From sequence record OQ921331.1: 42,514 bases of DNA, one strand, 5' to 3'. Each line of letters begins with the position of its first letter. Positions within the stretch are counted from its first letter, which is position 1. This document shows positions 1 through 42,514 of this stretch, one piece after another. Below the pieces are notes generated by a model. It did not search any database. It was not told the origin of the DNA and saw nothing but the letters and a program-made list of their open reading frames with translations. This DNA is from Escherichia phage vB_EcoP_PAS7. The translations under genes were made by a program, and so were the position numbers.

Positions 1-600
1 ATGGCGGTAGTAAGAAAGCAGCGTAGAGTTGACGGTAAGAAGCAGAACTACTATTGGGATACTGAATTATGTATTGAGGTAGCAGCTCCTGTAAGGAAAA
101 AGCACTATAGCATAGCTAATCCTATGCAAGGCTTGATAGGTTACGCTGTGATGCACGATAGCGAGCTTAAACAAGGTATAACAGACGCGTTTGCTAACTT
201 TAACGGTAGTCAGATGCGTAACGGTTTAACTGGTATCAGTATACCTAAGTTGATTGAGTTAGCAGATACACAACCAGAGCTATATAGTACTGAGCATCCA
301 GAGAGTACTAACCATGCTGCGTATGATGCAGCGCTTACTATGCTTCTAGTATTAGTGCGTGAACGTATCCCTGAATGGGAAGAGGCGTACAGATATGATA
401 TGCATAATAGTGGGTTAAATATCGTTGATTTAATGTGTGAACAAGGCTATGACACTGATAACTATACCGGTGCTATAGCTAATAGTCTTAATCAGGTTTG
501 GAGTGAAGGTAAGCTCTTAGTAGGCACTGAGGCTAACAAGCATTGGCTTAAATCTCAGGGATTTTCTAAACTGCGTTCCCAGCGTAATAGATACATTTGA
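1..600 (+). CDS. hypothetical early protein, possibly 5'-truncated by the window edge; weak DEDD-exonuclease-like motifs
   Basis: ORF track, 199 aa. Contains WDTE and NHAAYDAALTMLL, resembling Exo I (DxE) and Exo III (HxAxxD) motifs of DnaQ-like exonucleases. Motif-level only. Confidence 0.35.
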   Translation: MAVVRKQRRVDGKKQNYYWDTELCIEVAAPVRKKHYSIANPMQGLIGYAVMHDSELKQGITDAFANFNGSQMRNGLTGISIPKLIELADTQPELYSTEHPESTNHAAYDAALTMLLVLVRERIPEWEEAYRYDMHNSGLNIVDLMCEQGYDTDNYTGAIANSLNQVWSEGKLLVGTEANKHWLKSQGFSKLRSQRNRYI

Positions 601-614
601 CTAGTGAGGACATT

Positions 615-791
615 ATGGATAAAGCTAATTGGCAAGGTTATAAAACTCATGCAGATATGTTTGAGTTTCACAATAGAATTAACAACTACGCTTATCAGAG
701 ACTTAAAGCAGAGCAGGAGCTAGCAGAGCTTAGGCTACTAGCTTATAAGGAAGGGAAGGTATTCAACAATGAAGATTGGAAGAGATTTTAA
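615..791 (+). CDS. hypothetical early protein
   Basis: ORF track 597..791 begins at TTG; the in-frame ATG at 615 has a GTGAGGA RBS about 6 nt upstream. Confidence 0.4.
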   Translation: MDKANWQGYKTHADMFEFHNRINNYAYQRLKAEQELAELRLLAYKEGKVFNNEDWKRF

Positions 792-810
792 AGAAATTTG
801 AAAATAGTTG

Positions 811-839
811 TTGACTTACCTGTTTTGTAGAGGTATAGT
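811..839. promoter_or_regulatory. sigma70-like early promoter P1 (TTGACT-17-TATAGT)
   Basis: -35 TTGACT at 811-816, 17-nt spacer, -10 TATAGT at 834-839; same architecture as P2-P4. Confidence 0.6.
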
Positions 840-874
840 TACATCACACCACAACGAGGTAGGAAATAAAGAAG

Positions 875-1045
875 ATGAACATTCAGAGCATGAACTTCCC
901 GGTAATTATTAAAGATGGTAAGTCAGTTATTACTTTTACTAGCAAGGAAGAAGGTACTTACGAAAGCGGTACAGCTTGCATGTCCAGCCTAGAAGATATG
1001 ATTGTGCGTGTACAGGTTGGTAAGGCTTCAATAGTAACCGAGTAA
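875..1045 (+). CDS. small hypothetical protein (56 aa)
   Basis: ATG at 875 downstream of P1, stop TAA at 1043-1045; below the ORF-track size cutoff, found by manual translation (MNIQSMNFPVIIKDGK...). Confidence 0.3.
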   Translation: MNIQSMNFPVIIKDGKSVITFTSKEEGTYESGTACMSSLEDMIVRVQVGKASIVTE

Positions 1046-1200
1046 CGGTAAGCGCAGGCACGGAGCAGAGCACTAGCCAGCAAGTTAGCGGGAACGATAA
1101 GCCGCTGCCCTCCTGAAGAATCGGGGTAGATAAATAGGTTCTGAGCGTAACGTAGCGTCCTCGGGTTATACAGAGGGAATTACATGAGAAGCTAAGAGAC
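1038..1200 (+). ncRNA. candidate structured RNA element, copy 1 of 3 (divergent copy)
   Basis: Shares ACCGAG, ACGATAAGC, GCCCTCCTGAAG and a hairpin (stem AGAATC 1117-1122 / GGTTCT 1137-1142, loop GGGGTAGATAAATA) with copies 2 and 3; the stem covaries between copies. Confidence 0.4.
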
Positions 1201-1272
1201 AAAGGCTTCGCTAAGATAAGTGCTCTTAGTTAAGCGTTGCATACCGCAGCGCAGACTTAAGAGGATTTAATT

Positions 1273-1374
1273 ATGGGACGTATATTTGGCACTACCTTTC
1301 TAATCGCCGCTACTATCTTTAACATTACACTGCCGTTTCTTGCTATCTATGGCTTAATCATGCTGTTCGCTTAA
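1273..1374 (+). CDS. small hydrophobic membrane peptide (33 aa)
   Basis: AAGAGGA RBS then ATG at 1273; translation MGRIFGTTFLIAATIFNITLPFLAIYGLIMLFA is a single predicted TM helix. Confidence 0.35.
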   Translation: MGRIFGTTFLIAATIFNITLPFLAIYGLIMLFA

Positions 1375-1384
1375 GGAGATTACT

Positions 1385-1624
1385 ATGACTAACTTCAAAA
1401 CTATGATTGCTGGTATCTTGGCAGCTGCTGCTGTTACCTTCTCTATTAAGGATGCTCAGGCTGTTCCTAACAGCATTGAACTCTGCAACTGGGGCAAATG
1501 GGCGTACGCTCAGAACATCACGCTACAGCAGCTAGTAGACACGTTAAACAGCGTTGAAGCTATGCCGATTGATGATAGAATGCAGGTAGTAGAGTGCTTT
1601 GTAGAGGAGATGTCTAAATCATGA
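1385..1624 (+). CDS. small secreted/periplasmic protein with N-terminal signal peptide
   Basis: AAGGAG RBS 7 nt upstream; N-terminus MTNFKTMIAGILAAAAVTFSIKDAQA resembles a Sec signal peptide with an AQA cleavage site. Confidence 0.5.
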   Translation: MTNFKTMIAGILAAAAVTFSIKDAQAVPNSIELCNWGKWAYAQNITLQQLVDTLNSVEAMPIDDRMQVVECFVEEMSKS

Positions 1625-1749
1625 ACGAATGGTATGAAGAGGCAATGCCGTGGCTTATCTGGGCCTTAGGCTTCCTGATTGTATATATGATTGCTAGTTA
1701 CGCTGACGACGCTAAGATTGATTCTAAAGAGGAAGATAAAGATGCTTGA
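1621..1749 (+). CDS. small membrane protein (42 aa)
   Basis: ATG at 1621 overlaps the upstream stop (ATGA); translation MNEWYEEAMPWLIWALGFLIVYMIASYADD... has one TM segment; stop TGA at 1747-1749. Confidence 0.3.
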   Translation: MNEWYEEAMPWLIWALGFLIVYMIASYADDAKIDSKEEDKDA

Positions 1750-1999
1750 TATTATTCCCAACAACAAAGCTGCTAATGACGATAGATTCCAAGAATGTGA
1801 TTTCGAGGAGTATCGTCAGTACGAGGCATTGAGTGTAACGAAGGGAATGGCTAAGCGCGTATGGTTACATAGATATTATGTAGGTAAGTTCGCACGTGAG
1901 GAGCACGTGCGAGTTTACAATACGCAAGAGGCTGCTAAGGCTCAGCAAGCGGTGCTAGGCGGTACTGTTACTGCCCTGCTTGAAACTGGCTTAATCTAA
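1742..1999 (+). CDS. hypothetical early protein
   Basis: ORF track 1691..1999; the in-frame ATG at 1742 has an AAAGAGGAAG RBS. Confidence 0.45.
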   Translation: MLDIIPNNKAANDDRFQECDFEEYRQYEALSVTKGMAKRVWLHRYYVGKFAREEHVRVYNTQEAAKAQQAVLGGTVTALLETGLI

Positions 2000-2014
2000 T
2001 TCAGGGCGCGCATT

Positions 2015-2770
2015 ATGTTTGATTTAACTACTACGAACACAGAACAGACCATGTCTAGTCTGGACTTCTTGAATAACATTATTAATCCGGCGCGTGTAGC
2101 AGCAGGGGAGAGGGAGGTTAGAAATAGGGATTTTATCAAACGCGTAGAAGACGAGTTGGACGATTTAACGGCGGGCGAAACTTTCGTTCGCTTCGGTAAT
2201 ACAGTAACTTATTACAATCTAACCTTAGAGCAGATGACTCTAATAGGTATGCGTGAATCTAAAGCTGTGCGTCGCTCAGTGTTAGAAACTCTGAAGAAGC
2301 TGCAACGTAAGGAGACTGACGAAGAGATTATGATGCGCGGATATATGCTGACTGTTAAGAAGTACGAGCAGTTGCAGCAAACGCTTATCATGAAGGACGC
2401 GGTCATTGAAGTACAAGAAGAGCAAATTCATAATCTACAGAACCTGTTTAATGAAGGTATGACTCCTTCGGCATTCGTTAAGCAACTGAATGGCTGTAAT
2501 GCTAATGCTGTGTCGTCCTATCTAGAGCAGCTAGGTTGGATTTATTCTCGTGAACGTAAAGGAGGTAAGGATTGGTTTGCTTATGCAAGCTCACGTGATA
2601 AATATCTGCGTCAATCAAGTTACTGCCCTAACCCTGCTTATCCTAACGTGCGTATTCATACGGTACAGTTAACTAAGCAAGGCGCTGTTAAGCTCTATGA
2701 GATGTACTTAGACAGTAAACTTCCTATGCGTAAAGTATGGGATGGTAAATTCACCCACGACGTACTGTAA
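2015..2770 (+). CDS. putative Rha/KilAC-type antirepressor-like regulatory protein
   Basis: 251 aa; the C-terminal stretch FVKQLNGCNANAVSSYLEQLGWIYSRERKGGKDWFAYAS resembles the KilA-C/ORF6C pattern and the N-terminus resembles Rha-like domains. Recalled-pattern match only. Confidence 0.3.
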   Translation: MFDLTTTNTEQTMSSLDFLNNIINPARVAAGEREVRNRDFIKRVEDELDDLTAGETFVRFGNTVTYYNLTLEQMTLIGMRESKAVRRSVLETLKKLQRKETDEEIMMRGYMLTVKKYEQLQQTLIMKDAVIEVQEEQIHNLQNLFNEGMTPSAFVKQLNGCNANAVSSYLEQLGWIYSRERKGGKDWFAYASSRDKYLRQSSYCPNPAYPNVRIHTVQLTKQGAVKLYEMYLDSKLPMRKVWDGKFTHDVL

Positions 2771-2780
2771 GGAGGTTGAG

Positions 2781-2948
2781 ATGCACAATATTTCTAACCC
2801 TGAAGAAATGAAGGATCTGGCACGTCACCTTCTCGAAGCGCTGGATTATAGTACGGCTACTTCTGATGATGGTATGGTATGGTTAGAGAACTTTGAAGTA
2901 GGTATCTTGAGGGACTACATTGAGTATTTAGAAAATAAATTAAAATAA
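2781..2948 (+). CDS. hypothetical small acidic protein
   Basis: ORF track 2742..2948; ATG at 2781 is preceded by an AAGGAGG RBS. Confidence 0.45.
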   Translation: MHNISNPEEMKDLARHLLEALDYSTATSDDGMVWLENFEVGILRDYIEYLENKLK

Positions 2949-2951
2949 GTG

Positions 2952-2980
2952 TTGACGGTATGAGATGAGCAGCGTATAGT
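2952..2980. promoter_or_regulatory. sigma70-like early promoter P2 (TTGACG-17-TATAGT)
   Basis: -35 at 2952-2957, 17-nt spacer, -10 TATAGT at 2975-2980. Confidence 0.6.
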
Positions 2981-2986
2981 TAATCT

Positions 2987-3110
2987 CATCAAGACGTTAC
3001 CGAGAAACGATAAGTCGGCGCCCTTCTGAATCTTCTGGGTGGATAAAACGAAGATGAGCGGTTCCTCCCGTCCACGGATAATTCAGTGGGTCTGAGATGA
3101 AAGTAGTTTT
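2987..3110 (+). ncRNA. candidate structured RNA element, copy 2 of 3
   Basis: Starts at the predicted P2 transcription start. Hairpin stem ATCTTC 3030-3035 / GAAGAT 3050-3055 with loop TGGGTGGATAAAAC; downstream block CGGTTCCTCCCGTCCACGGATAATTCAGTG nearly identical to copy 3. Confidence 0.5.
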
Positions 3111-3158
3111 ACAAAGCCTTCTGCGGAGGGCTTCAATAAAACCACTAAGGAGATAAAG

Positions 3159-3485
3159 ATGAACGCTAAGGCTCAAGCACGTCGTTTCGGTATTTCTGTA
3201 GAAGCAGCTAAAGAGATGGAACGTAACCGTACTGAACTGGTGCAGCTTGCTCAGAAGCCGGAAGGTACTGAAGCACGTAAGGCGCTTAAGAAGTTAATGA
3301 CTCATACTTACAAAGCACAGTCCATTCCCAGCAATGACTTCTCTGATAAAGTATCTCAGCGCGGCAGTAAAGTAGCGGAGTATAAAGAACGCGGCGAACG
3401 CACTTGCCGTCCTAGCAGTAAGACGGATATTAAAGTTAATAGTTACTTTGCATCTAAATCACGTACTCCTAAGGGGATTAAATAA
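3159..3485 (+). CDS. hypothetical early protein (basic)
   Basis: ORF track, 108 aa; AAGGAGATAAAG RBS. Confidence 0.5.
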   Translation: MNAKAQARRFGISVEAAKEMERNRTELVQLAQKPEGTEARKALKKLMTHTYKAQSIPSNDFSDKVSQRGSKVAEYKERGERTCRPSSKTDIKVNSYFASKSRTPKGIK

Positions 3486-3589
3486 TGGACCTTAATACGG
3501 CTTGGCAGATGGTAATGTGGCCTGTATGCGTCGTAATAGCAATCATCCTGATAATCGCGACTGAAGTAGAGAAGAGGAACAAGAAATGA
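3485..3589 (+). CDS. small membrane peptide (34 aa)
   Basis: ATG overlaps the upstream stop (TAATG); MDLNTAWQMVMWPVCVVIAIILIIATEVEKRNKK has one TM segment; stop TGA at 3587-3589. Confidence 0.3.
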   Translation: MDLNTAWQMVMWPVCVVIAIILIIATEVEKRNKK

Positions 3590-3759
3590 TTCAAGAGGAT
3601 GATTTTGATACTTGGTATAACATTCACGTAAGGCACCGTGCTCGTGAGGAAGCTACTAGGAGGAAACTAGCAGCGCTTAATCGCGGGCACTCTGAGAAGT
3701 ATGCTAAGAAGTTAGCTTCTGAAACTTACAACGAATACCTGACGAGGAACTTAAAATGA
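3586..3759 (+). CDS. small hypothetical protein (57 aa), paralog of 3756..3917
   Basis: ATGA overlap with neighbours; C-terminus KYAKKLASETYNEYLTRNLK parallels HAKKLAQGIYSEYLKRYTE in the next ORF. Confidence 0.35.
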   Translation: MIQEDDFDTWYNIHVRHRAREEATRRKLAALNRGHSEKYAKKLASETYNEYLTRNLK

Positions 3760-3917
3760 CTGAACGTGAGATGTGGTATGAAGAATATGTTAAAAAACTT
3801 GCCGCCCAAGCTGCCACTGCTGCTTATCTGGTAGAACTTAAGAAACACTCTGAAGCTCACGCTAAGAAATTAGCGCAGGGTATTTACAGCGAATACTTGA
3901 AGAGGTATACAGAATGA
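3756..3917 (+). CDS. small hypothetical protein (53 aa), paralog of 3586..3759
   Basis: ATGA-coupled; manual translation MTEREMWYEEYVKKLAAQAATAAYLVELKKHSEAHAKKLAQGIYSEYLKRYTE. Confidence 0.35.
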   Translation: MTEREMWYEEYVKKLAAQAATAAYLVELKKHSEAHAKKLAQGIYSEYLKRYTE

Positions 3918-4042
3918 CACAGCACCAGAAAGCACAGCAACTAGCTAAGAACTACTACACCTTCCTGATTAACAATGAATGTAACACCTGTTTCGCTTGG
4001 AATGCAGCTATGGCCCTTTTCAAACTGGAGATGCAGAAATGA
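3914..4042 (+). CDS. small hypothetical protein (42 aa)
   Basis: ATGA-coupled; MTQHQKAQQLAKNYYTFLINNECNTCFAWNAAMALFKLEMQK. Confidence 0.3.
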   Translation: MTQHQKAQQLAKNYYTFLINNECNTCFAWNAAMALFKLEMQK

Positions 4043-4215
4043 CTGACCTTAACCCTGAACTGATTGTAATGCGTAATGATGAAGTAACTGTACAGAACCT
4101 AGCTCGCGAGTACGATGCGCGGACTGAGCTGCATGAATACTACAAAGCTAAGGCTGACCGTGTAGGTCTAACATTAGAAGCTTATTGCAAACGCTTTGGC
4201 GTTAAACTTCACTAA
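4039..4215 (+). CDS. small hypothetical protein
   Basis: In frame with ORF track 3997..4215; ATG at 4039 overlaps the upstream stop. Confidence 0.4.
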   Translation: MTDLNPELIVMRNDEVTVQNLAREYDARTELHEYYKAKADRVGLTLEAYCKRFGVKLH

Positions 4216-4225
4216 AGAGACAGAT

Positions 4226-4555
4226 ATGTTGCCAGTAAACGAAGTAGTCGGGCAGTACTGGCGTATGCTTGAGACTCAAAGCAGCTTAGGCCGTAAGACA
4301 TTGCAAGATATACCGATAGAGCTGCGCAGGCTCTGCCCTTTGAAATGGTGTACTGATTGGCAGTATCGTGAAGGTATGCGCCTGCTGGTAGGTTATTACA
4401 GCTATGATAACGAGAGAGCTTCAGAAGTCCTTCAGCGCATAGATTTTAATGTAATAAGGGAGTTGCAGGAGAAAGGGTATGAAGGTGCTAAGCAAGCGTT
4501 TAAGGATGCTTGCTTAGACTATTATGAATGGCAAGTATCGTACAGAGGTATCTAA
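4226..4555 (+). CDS. hypothetical early protein
   Basis: ORF track 4196..4555; in-frame ATG at 4226 with an AAAGAGACAG RBS. Confidence 0.45.
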   Translation: MLPVNEVVGQYWRMLETQSSLGRKTLQDIPIELRRLCPLKWCTDWQYREGMRLLVGYYSYDNERASEVLQRIDFNVIRELQEKGYEGAKQAFKDACLDYYEWQVSYRGI

Positions 4556-4706
4556 TGAACTTCGTAGAACATAATTTAAAGATTTCACCCATCAAGACAG
4601 GTTATAGCAGTATCTACAGACTAGACCAGAAGCATGGGCCTGAAGATAGTCCTAATGCTAGTACAGTATTCCTAACAGATGATAACATTAAGGAGTTAAT
4701 CAACTC

Positions 4707-5480
4707 ATGGCTGATGAACTCTGGCTCAGGACGGCAAAGCGCTTGGCTGTTGGACAAACTGAACGCTTTAGGTGCTGCGGAAGAACAGCAGCAGCCGTAA
4801 TAAGAAACGAGACTGATAAATGGTCCTGCTCCTGCTATCGTTGCAAGAGCTATCACGTAGAACGTAAGCAGTATGCGCAATTAGCAGCACCTGAAGTACT
4901 GGGGCGCGAGTTACCCGCCCCTCAGGACCTGAAGCGCCTGCCTGAACTGGATGCAGGGCTTCAGCAGTTCCTTTACGGATTCTTAATATCAAAAGGTATC
5001 TGGCCTGACATGGCTGGAGATGTTTATTACTCAGAACAATACAAGAGGTTAGTATGGAAATTATCAACGGTCAGTTACATAGCGCGAGCATTGCACGAGT
5101 ATCAGCAACCGAAATGGGTCGTAATGGGGAAGCCGATGCAGTATGCAGCCGCGACGAATACGACGGGTTCATTGATAGTATTGACGGAGGATTACCTTTC
5201 GGCTTTCAAAGTTCAGCAAGTCACGGAGAGGTATTCATCTCTACAAGTTACGGCGGTAGCGTTGCTTGGGACAAGATTACCGCTGACTCTGAAGGCTGGG
5301 CTTATTAAGTTAGGTAAGCCTGTAGTGTGTATGCTTGACGATGATAAAGCTGGCTGGGATGGTACAGTCAGTGTAATAAAACAGCTTAAACCTTTCCTGC
5401 CAGTCTATGATAGGCATTTAGATGTAGACCCTAAAGCCGCTCATTGCGGTAAGATACTTGGAGCATTTGATGGACTTTAA
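4707..5480 (+). CDS. DNA primase (zinc ribbon plus TOPRIM)
   Basis: AAGGAG RBS; N-terminal Cys cluster RCCGR...CSCYRC; TOPRIM-like CMLDDDKAGWDG. A separate primase and helicase is typical of phiKMV-like phages. Confidence 0.7.
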   Translation: MADELWLRTAKRLAVGQTERFRCCGRTAAAVIRNETDKWSCSCYRCKSYHVERKQYAQLAAPEVLGRELPAPQDLKRLPELDAGLQQFLYGFLISKGIWPDMAGDVYYSEQYKRLVWKLSTVSYIARALHEYQQPKWVVMGKPMQYAAATNTTGSLIVLTEDYLSAFKVQQVTERYSSLQVTAVALLGTRLPLTLKAGLIKLGKPVVCMLDDDKAGWDGTVSVIKQLKPFLPVYDRHLDVDPKAAHCGKILGAFDGL

Positions 5481-6744
5481 TTTACTACGCGCTTTCTGTG
5501 AACGTAAGGTAATGGATAGGTTGTACGAACAGACGCCTAAGTCCTTGCTAGCACCTGATACGGTAGCGATGATTGGTTGGCTGCAACTGTACTTCGCAAC
5601 TTATCCTGACTCTAACGAAGTTAACTTTGAGATGATGAATACGCTCTTGGATATGCGAGGGACACATCTTCAGAAAGAGCAGCTGGATATTATGAAGCAT
5701 ATGCTTAAGACTATTCAGAACGTCCCTACTGAGCTTGTAGCAGGTACAGTTAAGACACTGAATGAGCTAGCTTACTCTGGCGAGATGGCTGCACTAGTGA
5801 GCAAGTATCAGGCAGGTGATGAAATAGATTTCGTACAGGAAGCTAAAGCACTTGAGCGTAAGTACTCTGGTGTAGTAGCTGCTAATGATTCATTACTTAA
5901 ATGGGAAGATGGAGGTGTAGATGATATTCTCGCGGCTACTGATGAGTCTGGTGGTCTTAAGCTTACTGTGTTCAGTGAGTTGGCTAGAAACATTCGCGGC
6001 TTGCGGGGTGGTGATTGTGTCGCTGTGGCTGCTCCTGTTGACGCTGGTAAAACTTCTCTCCTTGCTGCTGCAGTAGTTAGCTTAGCTGAGCAGATGCATG
6101 AGCAGAAGGAGATTTACGCGGAGCGTCCTATACTGTGGCTGGTAAATGAATCATTAGCCAAGCGCACTGTTCCTCGTATCTATCAGGCAGCTACTGGGCT
6201 GACTCTTCAGCAGATTGTAGAGCAGCATAAAGAAGGTAAGTTCGCTGATAAGTATCTGAAGAAGGTTGGGACGTGGGATAAGATTCGCGTTAAGGATGCG
6301 CACAGTATGAATCTGGGGCAGATTTCAACCTTACTGGAGGAAATGAAACCTGCTGTTCTAGTAGTAGATATGGTGAGTGGTATCAAGGGCGCGAATGCTG
6401 ACTCAGAACATCAGGCACTGGAGCGTACTTGGCAGGAACTGCGCATCTTAGGCTGTGAGCATGACTGTATTATCATTGGTAGTATGCAGCTATCGGCAGA
6501 AGGTTACGATATGCTCTATCCCCCACTGACTGCTATGAAGCAATCACGCATCGGAGTACAGGGTGCATTAGACCTTTGTATTATGATGGGAAGATTGAAT
6601 GTGAATGATAAGCCGGACATGGCTAACATTCGCGGAATCTCTACCCCAAAATCAAAATTAACTAAGTCCGGCTGTCAGAGCTATGTTCAATTTCAGGTTG
6701 AATTTGACGGAGGACGTTGTCAGTTTAAGGAGGGTACATTATGA
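5470..6744 (+). CDS. replicative DNA helicase (DnaB/T7 gp4-like)
   Basis: Walker A AAPVDAGKTSLL and Walker B-like LVVDMV; ORF track start 5458 is TTG, the ATG at 5470 has a GGAG RBS. Confidence 0.7.
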   Translation: MDFNLLRAFCERKVMDRLYEQTPKSLLAPDTVAMIGWLQLYFATYPDSNEVNFEMMNTLLDMRGTHLQKEQLDIMKHMLKTIQNVPTELVAGTVKTLNELAYSGEMAALVSKYQAGDEIDFVQEAKALERKYSGVVAANDSLLKWEDGGVDDILAATDESGGLKLTVFSELARNIRGLRGGDCVAVAAPVDAGKTSLLAAAVVSLAEQMHEQKEIYAERPILWLVNESLAKRTVPRIYQAATGLTLQQIVEQHKEGKFADKYLKKVGTWDKIRVKDAHSMNLGQISTLLEEMKPAVLVVDMVSGIKGANADSEHQALERTWQELRILGCEHDCIIIGSMQLSAEGYDMLYPPLTAMKQSRIGVQGALDLCIMMGRLNVNDKPDMANIRGISTPKSKLTKSGCQSYVQFQVEFDGGRCQFKEGTL

Positions 6745-7166
6745 GCGAATGTATAGAACATAACCAGAAGGGCAACAAAGCTGGTTACGGCAATGGTTAC
6801 TGGAACGGTGAACAGGTTATGCTTCACCGCTTAGCCTATTGCTTTAACAAGCAAATACCTGTAAGTGAAATTAAAGGTAGTGTAGTGATGCACACCTGTG
6901 ATAACCCTCGCTGCATTAACCCAACGCACTTACGCTTGGGTACTCAGGATGAAAACATGAAAGATATGCAAGGCAAGGGAAGGATGAGCCAGGGCAGTAA
7001 GCATTACATATCTAAACTTACTGAGGAGGATGTTAAGTACATACGTGAGAATTATATACCACGGCATCCAAAGTTTGGAGGTAAGGCGCTTGCTGCTAAG
7101 TTTGGTATAAATCCGGCATCCCTGTGTCAAATACGAAAAGGCCTACGCTGGAAATCCGTAAGCTAA
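6741..7166 (+). CDS. HNH endonuclease
   Basis: HNH-type motif HTCDNPRCINPTHLRLGTQDEN; AAGGAGGG RBS; sits between helicase and DNA polymerase. Confidence 0.65.
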   Translation: MSECIEHNQKGNKAGYGNGYWNGEQVMLHRLAYCFNKQIPVSEIKGSVVMHTCDNPRCINPTHLRLGTQDENMKDMQGKGRMSQGSKHYISKLTEEDVKYIRENYIPRHPKFGGKALAAKFGINPASLCQIRKGLRWKSVS

Positions 7167-7218: not shown

Positions 7219-7371
7219 ATGTTAAAGTCAGAAGACATTACAGAGCAGGACTACGAGGTTATCCGTGCGATAGCTAATAACCGTAAGCAGGTTAAACGCT
7301 ACACGCTGGATAGCAGTGAGATGATTGTACGAGCAGCACTTAACAGAGCACGGCGCGAGGGGTGGAAATGA
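7219..7371 (+). CDS. small hypothetical protein (50 aa)
   Basis: GGGAGGAAG RBS, ATG at 7219, stop TGA at 7369-7371 overlapping the DNA polymerase start. Confidence 0.35.
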   Translation: MLKSEDITEQDYEVIRAIANNRKQVKRYTLDSSEMIVRAALNRARREGWK

Positions 7372-8582
7372 GCAGCATACTGATTTGGGATATTGAAACG
7401 CAGAACGTACCTTACTATGGCGGGGTTGCTACACCTTACTGCCCAGATAACTACATTGTGGAATCAGGCTTCAGGATTGATAGAACTAATCCAGATGGTA
7501 CGGTGACGTGCAGTGATGTAGGTAGCGTGCGTTACGAGTCGCGGGAGGAGTTCATCTCAGCACCTAGTAGTCAGTGGTTGCCTATTCAGGACGATACTTG
7601 GTTAATGGTAATGCATAACGCCGCATATGAGATTAGCTGGGCGTTGACGTTTGCTAGGGAAGAGTTTGAAGCATTCCTGAAACGGGGAGGGCGCGTATTC
7701 GATACAATGCAAGGCGAGTACATTGCCTCAGACTTCCAAAACCTTTACCCATCATTAGATGAGACGGCTCCTAAGTACGGCGGCAGCCACAAGGTTGACG
7801 GCGTTAAACTGCTATGGCAGCAGGGCGTGTTAACAGCAGATATTGACCCTGTACTGCTGCATGAGTATCTAACAGGGCCAGAAGGTGATATCGTAAACAC
7901 AGCGTTATGCTTCTACGGGCAGTGTGCAGTGTTCGCTGAGCGTGGGCAGATGCCTATGGTCTGGGAAAGGATGGATAGTGTACTGGCCTTAGCCTACTGC
8001 GAGTTCAACGGTGTGTACGTAGACATGCCTACAGCCAGAGCTAACCAGAAGGAGCAGGAGGACGCTATAGCAGAGCTGAAGCAGACGCTGCAAGGCTTCT
8101 TACCTGAACTGCCTGAGGGATTTGAGTTCAACTGGAACAGCGGTTATCATATGAGTGCGTTGGTGTACGGCGGTACGGTTAAGTACAAGTGCAAGGTCCC
8201 GTATGACCCGCCAAAGTTTGTAAAGTTCGATGCCTACCTGGCCGATGTTAAGGGTACTCAGCAATACATAGATGTTAATGATTGGCAAGATAGCTGGACG
8301 TACAGCCGTGAAGTGTTTAAGTCTGGACGTAATAAAGGTCTGCCCAAAGTTTACAAGGTGGAAAGTTCAGAGCAGTCTATGAAGTGGGGTGAGCGCCTGT
8401 ATAAGTTCGAAGGGCTTGTGCACATCCAAGACCTACCAGCAGTATTGCAAGAGAAGTACGCAGAGCGCGGAGAGTTCCGAGGTGCTCAGACATTGGCAGA
8501 TGGTACACCTGTGTTCAGTACAGGGACTGATGCTATGAAAGAACTGGCTAACTATTTTATTGGGATGGAAGAGAATGAGTAA
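7368..8582 (+). CDS. DNA polymerase part I (3'-5' exonuclease domain and N-terminal polymerase region)
   Basis: Exo I motif IWDIETQN near the N-terminus; ends at TAA 8580-8582, overlapping the start of part II in another frame. Confidence 0.7.
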   Translation: MSSILIWDIETQNVPYYGGVATPYCPDNYIVESGFRIDRTNPDGTVTCSDVGSVRYESREEFISAPSSQWLPIQDDTWLMVMHNAAYEISWALTFAREEFEAFLKRGGRVFDTMQGEYIASDFQNLYPSLDETAPKYGGSHKVDGVKLLWQQGVLTADIDPVLLHEYLTGPEGDIVNTALCFYGQCAVFAERGQMPMVWERMDSVLALAYCEFNGVYVDMPTARANQKEQEDAIAELKQTLQGFLPELPEGFEFNWNSGYHMSALVYGGTVKYKCKVPYDPPKFVKFDAYLADVKGTQQYIDVNDWQDSWTYSREVFKSGRNKGLPKVYKVESSEQSMKWGERLYKFEGLVHIQDLPAVLQEKYAERGEFRGAQTLADGTPVFSTGTDAMKELANYFIGMEENE

Positions 8583-9729
8583 CAAGGCTTCGGAGTTCTT
8601 CAAGGCATACAGTGAGATGACCTTGCGTGAGAAAGATTTAGGCTTCTATGAGAAGAAGGAATTTAACAAGGACGGTAGCCTGCGTAAGACTACAGGTATG
8701 CTTCCGTATGTAATCCCTCAGAAGGAAGACGGCAGCGGCATCATTCATCACAGATTGAATCACTGCTCAACCACGACCGGACGACTATCAGCATCTAACC
8801 CGAATATGCAGCAGTTGCCGCGTGAATCTAAGGTTAAGCAGATTCTGCGTAGTCGTTACGGTGAGCAAGGTATGATTGCTCAGTGTGACTACTCAGCTAT
8901 GGAAGTTGTAATGGGCTGTGTAATAACAGGTGATAAGAAACTACTATCCTTGCTTGAAGCTGGTACAGATATGCACTGCTATCGTTTAGCATTCCAAGAG
9001 GGTATGCCTTATGAAGAAGTCTACGAGCTTTGCCATAACCCGGATGCACCTAACCATAAGGAATGGAAGAAGAAACGAACAGCAATCAAAACCTTCAGCT
9101 TCGCAGCGCAGTATGGAGCTTCCGCTAAAGGACTGGCGTTCGCCTCTGGTGCCAGCCTGAAGGACGCTGAGAAGTTCTTAGCTAACGAAGAAGCCCTGTT
9201 CCCTGAATCTATTAAGTACCGTGATGTAATTGCAGCAGAGGTAAATCGTACAGCACTGTTAGAGCCTATGCGCCGCGAGCAATCAGATGATGGTAGCTGG
9301 CGTATCTATCGGGAAGGCTATTTTACTGCTCCTTGTGGTACTCGTTACCGCTTCCGTCAGAAACCTGTATGGCGTGAAGGTAAGCAGGTCATGGACTTTA
9401 AACCTACAGAGATGGCTAACTATCCATTTCAAGGTTCAGGTTCTCTGCTTATGCTTATTGCGATGGGTATGATTCTGCGCGCAGGATTAGCTACGGATTG
9501 GGGTAACGGTAGTTGGTGCTTGTTAGCAACTGTACATGACTCCGTATATTGTGACTGTAAAGATGAGTCAACGGCGAGGGAAGTAGGTCAATTAATTAAG
9601 AAATGTATGGAAGGTGCAAGAGATAGAATGCTGCAACTTTGGCCTAACTTCGGAATACTACAGGACGTTAAATTCCCTGCCGAGTGTGGTATTGGTAAAT
9701 CATTTAAAGAGGAGCAGGTACTTGGCTAA
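8575..9729 (+). CDS. DNA polymerase part II (family A palm/fingers)
   Basis: Motif A CDYSAMEVV, motif B RTAIKTFSFAAQYGAS, motif C VHDSVYCD. ATG at 8575 is in the frame of ORF track 8560..9729. Confidence 0.7.
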   Translation: MSNKASEFFKAYSEMTLREKDLGFYEKKEFNKDGSLRKTTGMLPYVIPQKEDGSGIIHHRLNHCSTTTGRLSASNPNMQQLPRESKVKQILRSRYGEQGMIAQCDYSAMEVVMGCVITGDKKLLSLLEAGTDMHCYRLAFQEGMPYEEVYELCHNPDAPNHKEWKKKRTAIKTFSFAAQYGASAKGLAFASGASLKDAEKFLANEEALFPESIKYRDVIAAEVNRTALLEPMRREQSDDGSWRIYREGYFTAPCGTRYRFRQKPVWREGKQVMDFKPTEMANYPFQGSGSLLMLIAMGMILRAGLATDWGNGSWCLLATVHDSVYCDCKDESTAREVGQLIKKCMEGARDRMLQLWPNFGILQDVKFPAECGIGKSFKEEQVLG

Positions 9730-10228: not shown

Positions 10229-10257
10229 TTGACAAGCAGGGATGCTTTCCGTATAGT
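10229..10257. promoter_or_regulatory. sigma70-like promoter P3 (TTGACA-17-TATAGT)
   Basis: -35 at 10229-10234, 17-nt spacer, -10 at 10252-10257. Confidence 0.6.
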
Positions 10258-10344: not shown

Positions 10345-10373
10345 TTGACAAGCAGTAACGAAGTAAGTAAGAT
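10345..10373. promoter_or_regulatory. sigma70-like promoter P4 (TTGACA-17-TAAGAT)
   Basis: -35 at 10345-10350, 17-nt spacer, -10 at 10368-10373; directly precedes element copy 3. Confidence 0.5.
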
Positions 10374-10379
10374 GTGCCA

Positions 10380-10510
10380 CATAGCAAGACGTTAACCGAG
10401 GACGATAAGCGGTTGCCCTTCTGAAGTCTCTGGGTAGATAAAACGAGACTGAACGGTTCCTCCCGTACACGGATAATTCAGTGTGATGCAGATGAGAGTC
10501 TAGGAGAAAT
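10380..10510 (+). ncRNA. candidate structured RNA element, copy 3 of 3
   Basis: AGACGTTAACCGAGGACGATAAGCGG...; hairpin stem AGTCTC 10425-10430 / GAGACT 10445-10450 with loop TGGGTAGATAAAAC; downstream block matches copy 2. Confidence 0.5.
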
Positions 10511-10589
10511 AAGACTCGCTAACTTAAGTAGGGTTAGTGATGCAGTCTTCAGAGATTGCAGCCTTAACTTTATTAATAGGAGGTAGTAG

Positions 10590-10778
10590 ATGAAAGTAAG
10601 AATCATCAATCACGATGCTTATGGTCCTTTCTTAACTGATACATGTAAGGAACTGTACGCAGTAGGTACAGTGCATGAAGTACAAGATTTCTTCCCTGAC
10701 ACGGGGGAGGTTATCTTAGGGTATGAAGATGAAGGATTTACCTTTGATCCATCAGAGTATGAAGTTGTGGAGGAGTAG
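10590..10778 (+). CDS. hypothetical small acidic protein
   Basis: ORF track, 62 aa; AGGAGG RBS; followed by a terminator. Confidence 0.5.
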   Translation: MKVRIINHDAYGPFLTDTCKELYAVGTVHEVQDFFPDTGEVILGYEDEGFTFDPSEYEVVEE

Positions 10779-10782
10779 GTGT

Positions 10783-10809
10783 AGCCCTGCGTAGGAAGGG
10801 CTTTATTAT
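10783..10809 (+). terminator. rho-independent terminator
   Basis: Stem AGCCCT 10783-10788 / AGGGCT 10797-10802, then TTATTAT. Confidence 0.5.
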
Positions 10810-10866
10810 AGCACGAATGCTGAGATTTGTACAGTAATAAATTAATTATTTACATAAGGGTTAAAT

Positions 10867-11612
10867 ATGAACTATTTAGATATCTGCGAGAAGTACAATG
10901 TAGGAAGCCTGCGCGACGCTAACCTGCGCGACGCTGACCTGTACGGCGCTAACCTGTACGGCGCTGACCTGCGCGACGCTAACCTGTACGGCGCTAACCT
11001 GTGCGGCGCTGACCTGCGCGACGCTAACCTGTACGGCGCTAACCTGTGCGGCGCTGACCTGCGCGGCGCTAACCTGCGCGGCGCTAACCTGCGCGGCGCT
11101 AACCTGTACGGCGCTAACCTGCGCGGCGCTAACCTGCGCCTAACCTGCGCGGCGCTAACCTGTACGGCGCTAACCTGCGCGGCGCTAACCTGCGCGGCGC
11201 TAACCTGTGCGGCGCTAACCTGTGCGGCGCTAACCTGCGCGGCGCTAACCTGCGCGGCGCTAACCTGTACGGCGCTAACCTGCGCGACGCTAACCTGCGC
11301 GACGCTGACCTGTGCGGCGCTGACCTGCGCGACGCTGACCTGTGCGGCGCTAACCTGCGCGGCGCTGACCTGCATGGGACTGACTTGATTGTAATTTATG
11401 GGGAACAGTACTTTATTAGCCTATACAAGGGAACAGTACGCGCAGGTTGTCAGTCGCATACGATAGCGGAGTGGCGAAGTTTTAGTAAGGAAGAAGTAAT
11501 TGCTATGGACGGGCGTAATTCTCTTAAATACTACCCACGTCTTTTAGACATCATTGATTTTTACTGTGGTAAGGGCGAGCGTCCTGATTGGGTAATGAAA
11601 ATAAACAAGTAA
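10867..11612 (+). pseudogene. pentapeptide-repeat protein, frame disrupted at about 11139-11141 by a 4-nt indel in the tandem-repeat region
   Basis: Frame 1 reads A(D/N)LXX pentapeptide repeats ([15 protein letters not shown]...) up to 11139. The repeat unit AACCTGCGCGGCGCT is shortened to AACCTGCGCCT at 11131-11141; the repeat frame continues in another frame to the stop at 11612, with a non-repeat C-terminal domain (ORF track 11385..11612). Confidence 0.55.
10921..11370. repeat. tandem 15-bp repeat array (about 30 units, consensus AACCTGCGCGGCGCT)
   Basis: Direct reading: 15-nt units with variants GAC/AAC, TAC/TGC/CGC and GGC/GAC; one truncated unit near 11131-11141. Confidence 0.9.
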
Positions 11613-14046: not shown

Positions 14047-14068
14047 ACGCCCCGCAAGGGGCTTTTAA
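14047..14068 (+). terminator. rho-independent terminator (GNRA-loop hairpin plus T run)
   Basis: GCCCC-GCAA-GGGGC at 14049-14062 followed by TTTT. Confidence 0.5.
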
Positions 14069-14081
14069 TAAGGATTAAGAA

Positions 14082-30595: not shown

Positions 30596-30624
30596 TTGAC
30601 GAATCATGAAATCCGTGATATAAT
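30596..30624. promoter_or_regulatory. sigma70-consensus promoter (TTGACG-17-TATAAT) inside an 8-bp inverted repeat
   Basis: -35 at 30596-30601, -10 TATAAT at 30619-30624; flanked by AAGGGTTT (30590-30597) and AAACCCTT (30626-30633); a 7-bp hairpin GGGGTAC/GTACCCC follows at 30642-30663. Confidence 0.4.
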
Positions 30625-30715
30625 AAAACCCTTCCAGCGCCGGGGTACACTATCAAGTACCCCAGCTCTATTCTTTATCTATTCCCTTTATCAAAAAACC
30701 TTTAAGGATTATGAA

Positions 30716-42021: not shown

Positions 42022-42514
42022 GCTCAGTACTGGCATTATACAAGGCATTACAGGGAATTACAGGGTGCGTGTGTAAACATGCACCTTGGATTTATTATAC
42101 TTACGCGAGGCCCTCCCTCACCCGACCAACGCCCTCTTCCCCCCATAGGGTGGTCTGCTGGGACGTTTCTAGGTCAATAGGGGTGCCGTAGTGCCTATCG
42201 CAGCGGTGTACAGGCCTGTATCTGGGCCTATGCAGCGGTAGTAATGTGGCAGTAACGGCAGTAACAGGGCAAGCTCTGGTGCTCTGTGCTTCTCTTTGTA
42301 GGGGCGCAGGAGAGCTGGCGCTTGCCTATTTTGTTCTTCCTATAGTACGCCTGTGCTCTCCCTTGTTCTCTCCTTGATGTGTCACTGCGCTAGCTCTGCT
42401 TAGCAATGGCTTGCTTCTTTTGTTCTACTGTGCTAGGCTTGGTTTTAATGCAGTGCGCTCTTTAATAATCAGGTAGGTCATATACTATTAATACATTTGC
42501 TTGGTGAGGACACT
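42022..42514. other. non-coding right-end region, candidate genome terminus or packaging region
   Basis: No ORF of 60 aa or more; C-rich tract CCCTCCCTCACCCGACCAACGCCCTCTTCCCCCC; short direct repeats GCAGTAAC. Confidence 0.4.
42064..42095 (+). terminator. putative terminator hairpin after the tail spike gene
   Basis: GGTGCGTG...CATGCACC imperfect stem followed by TTGGATTTATTAT. Confidence 0.35.

Follow-up and report, generated by a model that had tools for sequence, protein, structure and literature searches.

A repeated structured leader RNA behind host-type promoters of Escherichia phage vB_EcoP_PAS7 varies in type with a small basic phage protein

Dedicated control of host RNA polymerase (RNAP) elongation by phages is known mainly from the lambdoid phages. 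In the lambda N/nut system, the N-terminal part of the N protein pairs allele-specifically with the RNA type, and the put RNA of phage HK022 acts alone, on the zinc-binding domain of the RNAP beta' subunit. Early transcription in the Autographivirales is usually described in terms of strong host promoters alone; the T7 early region combines the tandem A1-A3 host promoters with RNase III sites and coupled small early genes. We know of no T7-like podovirus with its own RNAP that uses an N/nut-like system. The put element is a two-stem RNA of ~70-74 nucleotides (nt) that acts on host RNAP transcripts with no phage protein needed; putL follows PL directly, and putR is found ~270 nt past the PR start (PMC9378689). 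Here we describe, in the whole ~42.5-kb genome of the podophage Escherichia phage vB_EcoP_PAS7 (OQ921331.1; 42,514 nt, hereafter the window), a repeated structured leader RNA found behind predicted host-type promoters, together with its candidate partner, a basic protein of 108 amino acids (aa) encoded by the open reading frame (ORF) at 3159-3485.

A first-pass annotation had described positions 811-4800 as an early region of promoters and coupled micro-ORFs. These promoters and micro-ORFs are real, but the folded leader RNAs and the protein that goes with them were overlooked, the latter having been listed as one more small ORF rather than as a candidate partner of the leader. Approximately 400 nt of that range, in the non-coding stretches 1046-1272 and 2981-3158, hold copies A and B of the leader, and copy C lies at 10381-10589. 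By repeat search (family D2) and by alignment, the three share one ~115-nt non-coding repeat behind the promoters. Each leader is a fold of ~170-230 nt: a module that we call M1, ~119 nt long with four helices and invariant purine-rich loops and junctions, is followed by a mini-ORF and then by either a second module, M2, which consists of three hairpins ending at a strong ribosome-binding site, or a 19-codon upstream ORF (uORF). In copies B and C, M1 begins 2-3 nt past the predicted start sites of promoters P2 and P4, and the genes downstream of A, B and C differ. Because the leaders follow promoters and the genes behind them differ, the element is tied to host-RNAP transcription units and not to a particular gene. 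The leader sequences are purine-rich, with more G than C, and M2 ends at its 3' side in a conserved AGAAUUAAGAGG ribosome-binding region. In leader C, the sequence UUAACUUUA (10564-10572) upstream of the Shine-Dalgarno (SD) sequence of ORF 10590-10778 is identical to the T7 gene 10 'epsilon' translational enhancer.

Across relatives, M1 comes in types. Types I and II follow a common plan, namely CUGAAG, a hairpin with a GAUA-containing loop, two short 3' hairpins and AUGAG, and their 5' halves are very different. Covariation and invariant unpaired nucleotides establish the leader as a specific structured RNA fold. RNAalifold, run on the three window copies, gave a first fold of four helices with compensatory changes, and covariance models and relatives were then brought in. 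Among 22 distinct copies of type I M1, 96.1% of cells are paired, compared to 32-39% in slid controls, and 13 of the 22 pairs show compensatory changes, including all six pairs of helix H2. The corresponding values are 99.2% (slid controls 23-45%) and 9 of 18 pairs for 22 distinct copies of type II M1, and 99.3% (slid controls 32-43%) and 13 of 19 pairs for 38 distinct copies of M2. MAFFT alignments, which are not fitted to any model, give the same covariation picture for M1 and M2. Unpaired positions are strongly conserved, among them GCCCUnCUGAA and, as a loop, GGGUnGAUA for type I, and GGCAnCUGAAGG and GAUaaccAAGAC for type II; in the consensus structure, the leader begins with ~10 unpaired nt. 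A GCCC:GGG pseudoknot within M1 is possible, and it is beyond the reach of covariation because all three of its pairs are invariant. A closing helix between the 5' end and GAUGAG, judged by eye, was inconsistent across copies and was dropped. We also rejected the DnaA-box-like GGTGGATAA in the H2 loop as a DNA-level element, since the flanking helices covary as RNA.

This fold does not correspond to a described RNA in the sources we searched. The whole window gave no Rfam match at the gathering score, and in 780-3200 at E<=10 the only hit was PrfA (E = 7; 21.7 bits versus a gathering score of 88), which is noise. No leader-like sequence was found in 5,426 E. coli genomes, and literature searches found no published description of these leaders.

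The relatives used here are based on 30 homologues of ORF 3159-3485 from a protein search, with 14 contigs added by look-ups; pattern scans of viral contigs and a single metagenome scan returned only a handful of loci, and the useful relatives came from the protein look-ups. Among 17 genome sets, 8 carry type I only and 9 carry type II only, with up to three copies each, and no genome is mixed. Consistent with this, matches of the M1 models R1 and R2 are disjoint across all genomes.

The type of M1 is mirrored in the protein. Alone among 21 testable genes, ORF 3159-3485 separates by M1 type: every one of the 15 nearest neighbours shares the type, and proteins of one type are 85.3% identical, versus 67.0% for those of different types. 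The other 20 genes are about as similar between types as within them, and the nearest neighbour often belongs to the other type, as in the C-terminal part of the DNA polymerase (83.3% within, 84.5% between) and in the helicase (85.8% and 85.7%). The 30 homologues fall into three N-terminal classes, and ~85 C-terminal residues are conserved in all forms (...KPEGTEARK...IPSND...ERGERTCRPSSK...NSYF.SKS.TPKG). The 108-aa class, with the N-terminus MNAKAQARRFGISVE..., is found in type I genomes only, and the 137-139-aa class, with the N-terminus MKATRSNWKEAKGLV..., in type II genomes only. The third class, P0030 (112 aa), adjoins a third M1 variant, in which a type I 3' half is joined to a new 5' half. 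For ORF 3159-3485 itself, AlphaFold2 predicts three N-terminal helices (first 47 aa; predicted local distance difference test, pLDDT, 80-87) followed by a disordered remainder. Taken together, these comparisons argue that one small basic protein and every leader copy of a genome have been selected together.

Leader C shows that this agreement is not simply inherited with the surrounding DNA. Its P3/P4 region is common to all genomes, and in the window its flanks are nearly identical to those of type II genomes while its M1 is type I. By M1 the window groups with relative L005, and L006 with L003; by M2 the window groups with L006, and L003 with L005. All four combinations of M1 and M2 therefore occur on a shared P3/P4 background, and since the two modules group the genomes differently, M1 and M2 recombine independently. 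Given that 20 of the 21 genes do not separate by type and that leader C is mosaic, the coherence of type within a genome is not a matter of simple shared ancestry. Concerted evolution by gene conversion among the leaders also seems unlikely, because orthologous copies across genomes, such as the A copies, look more alike than do A, B and C within a genome.

As far as sampled, the leader family is confined to a small clade of Slopekvirinae-like phages from E. coli and wastewater. In a more distant relative, L030, a promoter-leader cassette with the third M1 variant and a shortened M2 lies at 637-845, downstream of the ORF 3159-3485 homologue, and a different ~95-nt hairpin leader precedes that homologue. 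Drulisvirus VLC1 and Vibrio phage M9 gave no match with models R1 and R3. A leader at the left end of Drulisvirus VLC1 looks alike by eye; we do not count it as a homologue, as neither model matches it and VLC1 has no multi-copy leader.

The mini-ORF at the junction of M1 and M2 has the form AUG-AGA/AGC-NNN-stop. Its AUG is present in 39 of 40 distinct leaders and its three sense codons in 36 of 40, and UAA, UAG and UGA are all in use as stops. Its SD-like GAGGG/GGGAG is the 3' strand of helix H4, and its third codon also forms the 5' strand of helix M2a, in covariation with the opposite strand. In leader B, the putative uORF that replaces M2 ends 2 nt upstream of the ATG at 3159, and its frame is kept in L001 and, despite a 9-nt insertion, in L002 (phage P64441). 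Similar to the bar minigenes of lambda, the mini-ORF is a conserved ORF of two to three sense codons (AUG AGA NNN stop) on a heavily transcribed early leader. Unlike in those minigenes, its third codon is also a strand of M2a, 4 of 40 copies depart from the three-codon form, and as an ORF it is putative.

The promoters behind which the leaders lie carry the hexamers, the 16-18 bp spacer and the syntenic conservation of sigma70-dependent promoters, with activity that is predicted. The pattern TTGAC-N18-TAnnnT has five matches in the window compared to 1.5 expected, and 2 of 100 shuffles reach five. In a consensus scan of 1-6000, P1 and P2 rank at the top with 10 of 12 matches each, and an excess of promoter-like sites was not found there (12 observed, 11 expected). 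The support for the calls lies in conservation with the leaders rather than in the number of sites: TTGAC-N16-19-TAnnnT lies no more than 70 nt upstream of M1 in 45 of 51 leader copies. The start site of P2 was inferred from a conserved 'cA' 7-8 nt past the -10 element. The first-pass annotation had placed four near-identical promoters in 811-4800. P1 and P2 are indeed there; P3 and P4, in tandem and 116 bp apart, lie ~5.5 kb outside it. Nor are the four near-identical, because only the hexamers and spacing are shared and the spacer sequences differ. The 87-nt transcript segment between P3 and P4 (10258-10344) is also highly conserved, in genomes of type I and type II alike, and contains an ACCG-GAAA-CGGU hairpin with a GNRA loop.

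Of all type I copies, only window copy A lacks a promoter right next to it: in all the other type I genomes, no gap separates leader A from the promoter, and the P1 sequence itself lies directly upstream of leader A in L001, L002, L017-L019, L028 and L029. Since P1 abuts copy A in these relatives, ORF 875-1045, which separates the two in the window, looks like an insertion specific to the window phage. The stretch 1046-1075, immediately 5' of leader A, can be aligned to the promoter region of copies B and C and has lost the hexamers; it may be a promoter remnant left by the insertion.

How, then, does the locus compare with the systems described above? Like lambda N/nut, it has an RNA site that is promoter-proximal in each early operon and a protein gene that comes first behind an early promoter and its own copy of the site; the order is different in L030, in which the leader comes after the gene. 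The protein is small, basic and, by prediction, largely disordered, as N is, and the protein allele is paired with the RNA allele via the N-terminus with the remainder conserved, a pairing seen here as co-variation. Like the HK022 put sites, the leader is a structured RNA at the start of early transcripts or a few hundred nt downstream, with at least two related copies per genome. Unlike put, the leaders come in types that match a phage protein. The T7 early region also has strong, partly tandem sigma70 promoters, non-coding RNA structure and many small overlapping early genes; in the window, unlike in T7, the leader recurs at 10.4 kb amid replication genes, and the phage RNAP gene lies downstream of all leaders. 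An RNase III site needs a long (~20 bp) coaxial duplex with an internal loop, and the supported leader helices, of 4-8 bp and separated by junctions, are too short to make a T7-type site.

On these grounds our preferred reading, which we hold tentatively, is that M1 and the ORF 3159-3485 protein may be a lambda N/nut-like RNA-protein pair that works on host-RNAP early transcripts, most likely by antitermination. Host RNAP would start at the strong promoters P1, P2 and P3/P4, and every host-RNAP early transcript would carry the folded leader at or near its 5' end. M1 would be the recognition site for the protein, the variable N-terminus of which would specify the M1 type that is bound, while the conserved C-terminal ~85 residues would act on a constant host target. 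The RNA-protein complex could then stay with the elongating polymerase and allow it to read through internal stops, such as the hairpin at 10783-10811, leading to expression of long early and middle operons that include the phage RNAP gene. We favor antitermination because the element goes with start sites and the genes are ordered as in PL-nutL-N, and because host RNAP must cross operons of 6-7 kb to reach the phage RNAP gene. Two candidate stops lie on this path. The hairpin at 10783-10811, a predicted terminator, recurs at an equivalent place in 11 of 13 relatives, type I and type II genomes among them. A second terminator-like site, 14049-14070 (GCCCC-GCAA-GGGGC at 14049-14062, then UUUUAAU), falls in the 47-nt gap before ORF 14082, upstream of the exonuclease, endonuclease and phage RNAP genes, and is also present, with a weaker U-tract, in L021. 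The fuller proposal is somewhat more doubtful still: that the pair would constitute a hitherto undescribed processive antitermination system of T7-like phages, made of parts unrelated to those of lambda, in which host RNAP would be reprogrammed behind each early promoter so as to get as far as the phage RNAP gene, and in which the exchangeable types (I, II and at least one more) would prevent cross-activation between related phages.

Several observations weigh against antitermination by such a pair. In a strict scan, the host-transcribed region has a single strong intrinsic terminator, 14049-14062; the hairpin that begins at 10783 is a weak one, and an antisense promoter-like site overlaps it. 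M2, the mini-ORF and the uORF adjoin the ribosome-binding site, and a translational role fits them equally well. M1 is a ~119-nt four-helix module, unlike the 15-nt boxB hairpin of lambda. We did not find in the leaders a boxA (CGCUCUUA / UGCUCUUUAACA) with a boxB hairpin and its GNRA-like pentaloop behind it, and the helices and loops of M1 differ from boxB. The boxA-like TGCTCTTA occurs in just 2 of 38 distinct M2 copies and within a paired strand; the corresponding sequence of window copy A, UGCUCUUA, was rejected as a boxA for this reason. The protein has no Pfam match at E<=1 and no match in the PDB with either the single sequence or a profile, and neither in sequence nor as a profile does it resemble lambda N (hhalign probability 0.3%). 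All relatives come from a narrow clade, so that the number of independent evolutionary events is modest. ORF 3159-3485 adjoins leader B, so that linkage trivially accounts for its match to the type of copy B and only its agreement with copies A and C, 2-7 kb away in mosaic DNA, is informative; the 21-gene test covered late genes only partly.

Two further resemblances to N were considered. The N-terminal MNAKAQARRF is not an arginine-rich motif: it has two Arg only, and the 139-aa class lacks it. Within the family, conservation is highest in the motif Y-x-ERGERTCRPSSK (3384-3440, residues ~76-94), which loosely resembles the C-terminal YSKPGERGITCSGRQK of lambda N; the profile comparison of this 'GER..TC' resemblance is not significant, and we take it as a lead only.

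The same co-variation of leader type and protein also fits the main rival, a post-transcriptional operator, in which the ORF 3159-3485 protein binds M1 in all early leaders and controls the translation or stability of early mRNAs, as a shut-off or activation switch, by remodeling the mini-ORF, M2 and the ribosome-binding region rather than by acting on RNAP. M1 directly precedes the conserved mini-ORF with its SD-like strand in H4, M2 or the uORF runs into the ribosome-binding site, and the weak evidence for terminators in need of bypass speaks for such a switch as well. It is nevertheless unlikely in our view, given that 90-120 nt, including an M2 that recombines separately, set M1 apart from the ribosome-binding sites downstream of it, and that the element is tied to promoters and start sites while the downstream genes differ; window copy A, behind an inserted ORF, is placed as a transcript-level element would be. 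If the phage protein is taken out of the picture, M1 could bind host RNAP directly and suppress pausing and termination, as put does, and the match with ORF 3159-3485 would reflect linkage. M1 is placed either at +1 of an early promoter or ~240 nt further on, each genome has several copies, and the loops and junctions are invariant, all of which would suit a put-like RNA. What makes this improbable is that put is a ~70-nt two-stem RNA, that two or three very different M1 5' halves would have to fit one invariant polymerase surface, and that the coherence of type within mosaic genomes would be left unexplained; the co-variation with a phage protein argues against it. In the HK022 PL-PR region, model R1 found no match, and the putL and putR sequences, read directly, are unrelated to M1.

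Two further explanations were weighed. The leaders could be passive 5' untranslated scaffolds that only stabilize early mRNAs and boost translation, the types being neutral lineage variants. Their purine-rich, G>C sequence, which would make a Rho-proof structure, the UUAACUUUA upstream of the SD in leader C and the conserved AGAAUUAAGAGG at the end of M2 are in keeping with such a role. On the other hand, strong covariation and unpaired nucleotides that never vary are signs of a specific fold, not of generic structure, and a 5'-terminal protective hairpin would not leave the 5' end unpaired, as the first ~10 nt are in the consensus. Coherence of type at three loci despite recombination on both sides of M1 is also unexpected for neutral variants, and we judge a passive scaffold to be about as improbable as the put-like RNA. 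Finally, the leader could be cut from the mRNA and act in trans as a small RNA or decoy that sequesters a host RNA-binding protein, nuclease or defence sensor, with three copies providing dosage. The leader is multi-copy and transcribed from the strongest promoters, and GAUAA-type motifs recur in several of its loops. We identified no processing signal, however, and no similarity to E. coli sequences or Rfam families, and phage-specific types that go with a phage protein would be left unexplained by a host target. This makes a trans-acting RNA very improbable, the most so of the explanations considered here.

The promoter-leader-protein system is new as a family, and its leader is an RNA family absent from Rfam. 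If the preferred reading of an RNA-protein pair acting on host RNAP is true, it would be a new variant of nascent-RNA-directed control of that polymerase, and it would give a function to the 'hypothetical' protein family phrog_9286, to which ORF 3159-3485 belongs. More broadly, a compact RNA fold and a 108-aa protein would be a new case of nascent-RNA-directed control of bacterial RNAP or of early mRNA fate. The natural swaps of M1 type offer ready-made specificity controls, and the promoter-leader-protein parts could serve synthetic biology as orthogonal modules. The locus also illustrates that the gaps between early phage micro-ORFs can hold the most informative elements. Coordinates of its features are collected in Table 1.

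Table 1. Promoters, leader modules, ORFs and a terminator-like hairpin of the host-transcribed part of the window.
Feature	Coordinates	Strand	Details
P1, predicted sigma70-type promoter	811..839	+	TTGACT-17-TATAGT
ORF between P1 and leader A	875..1045	+	56 aa; no credible homologue in relatives
Leader A, M1 type I	1076..1193	+	covariance model, 125.5 bits; covariation
Leader A, M2	1184..1264	+	model R3, 88.4 bits; three hairpins ending at SD of ORF 1273; covariation
Leader A, putative mini-ORF	1184..1195	+	AUG AGA AGC UAA
First small-ORF chain	1273..2948	+	1273-1374 transmembrane (TM); 1385-1624 signal-peptide-like; 1621-1749 TM; 1742-1999; 2015-2770 Ant/pRha-like; 2781-2948
P2, predicted sigma70-type promoter	2952..2980	+	TTGACG-17-TATAGT; predicted start A2988
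Leader B, M1 type I	2988..3106	+	covariance model, 130.2 bits; covariation
Leader B, putative uORF in place of M2	3097..3156	+	19 codons, MKVVLQSLLRRASIKPLRR*; read from sequence
ORF 3159-3485, candidate trans-acting partner of M1	3159..3485	+	108-aa basic protein; isoelectric point 10.2; 25 K+R
Second small-ORF chain	3485..4800	+	3485-3589 TM; 3586-3759 and 3756-3917 paralogues; 3914-4042; 4039-4215 DUF7267; 4226-4555; 4555-4800
P3, predicted promoter	10229..10257	+	TTGACA-17-TATAGT
P4, predicted promoter	10345..10373	+	TTGACA-17-TAAGAT; predicted start A10381
Leader C, M1 type I	10383..10501	+	covariance model, 135.3 bits
Leader C, remainder	10492..10589	+	mini-ORF 10492-10503, M2, epsilon-like UUAACUUUA 10564-10572, SD
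Leader C, putative mini-ORF	10492..10503	+	AUG AGA GUC UAG
First gene after leader C	10590..10778	+	62-aa acidic protein; phrog_6862, unknown-function family
Terminator-like hairpin with U-rich tail	10783..10811	+	AGCCCUGCGUAGGAAGGGCU UUAUUAU; between first gene after leader C and operon leading to RNAP gene

RNAP identity and gene order place the window phage in the Slopekvirinae (Autographivirales), with a T7-like, phiKMV-type layout. All window genes are on the + strand. A single-subunit RNAP gene lies mid-genome (16746-19196), and the gene order is like that of phiKMV/KP34-type phages. The RNAP shares 85% identity with its counterparts in Escherichia phage ECO104 4-5-2 and in vB_EcoP_P64441, the latter classified (record PQ847473) in Autoscriptoviridae, Slopekvirinae (Autographivirales); identity to the RNAPs of Klebsiella Drulisvirus phages is ~61%. 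The view taken in the first-pass annotation, that a region transcribed early by host RNAP is followed by tightly coupled small genes, agrees with the conservation of promoters at syntenic sites and with the mid-genome position of the phage RNAP.

What had been said of the small ORFs themselves also held up. All of those listed are present, with SD-like sequences, and their stops and starts overlap as described (ATGA at 1621, 3586, 3756, 3914 and 4039; TAATG at 3485 and 4555). The three predicted single-TM peptides (1273-1374, 1621-1749 and 3485-3589) have maximum Kyte-Doolittle scores over 19 residues of 2.08, 1.85 and 2.56, respectively. In the ORF called a signal-peptide protein, 1385-1624, a hydrophobic N-terminal stretch ends in AQA, and the proposed tandem paralogues 3586-3759 and 3756-3917 are 45% identical (E = 5e-8). 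Most of the small reading frames are kept in related phages, the point on which the coding assignments had been said to depend; matches in relatives are weak or lacking for ORFs 875-1045, 1273-1374 and 3485-3589. In the first chain (1273-2948), frames are kept in a subset of relatives, which is a mosaic, accessory pattern. In the first-pass annotation such genes were put down as putative host-takeover or anti-defence factors; PHROGs and Pfam place the small ORFs in families of unknown function only, save for the Ant/pRha-like ORF 2015-2770 and the DUF7267 ORF 4039-4215. The coupled micro-ORF chain behind the leaders is ordinary accessory early-gene cargo.

Other features of the window can be noted. 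The ~490-nt non-coding stretch 42022-42514 at its end, just before ORF 1-600, is probably a genome end or terminal-repeat region. A leaderless promoter of relatives (TTGACTTACTGGTCAAGTGAAGATATAGT) is absent from the window. The DNA polymerase is split into two overlapping ORFs (7362-8582 and 8560-9729), an identical split being annotated in P64441, and an HNH-type ORF (6741-7166) lies near the split gene. Further downstream, a pentapeptide-repeat protein gene (10867-11388) is made of ~26 tandem 15-nt DNA repeats, and a related gene is annotated in P64441.

The fifth match to the promoter pattern is a perfect TTGACG-17-TATAAT at 30596-30624, in the gap between two internal-virion-protein genes. 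It contains the + copy (30614-30635) of a two-copy, 22-nt element, CGTGnTATAATAAAnCCCTTCC, for which no repeat is expected by chance. The other copy (10794-10815, - strand) is antisense and overlaps the terminator-like hairpin 3' of ORF 10590-10778. Both copies are conserved in relatives, and the -35 hexamer of the antisense copy is a full TTGACA in L005 and L006. The element may act as a host promoter, late or antisense, or combine a terminator with a promoter.

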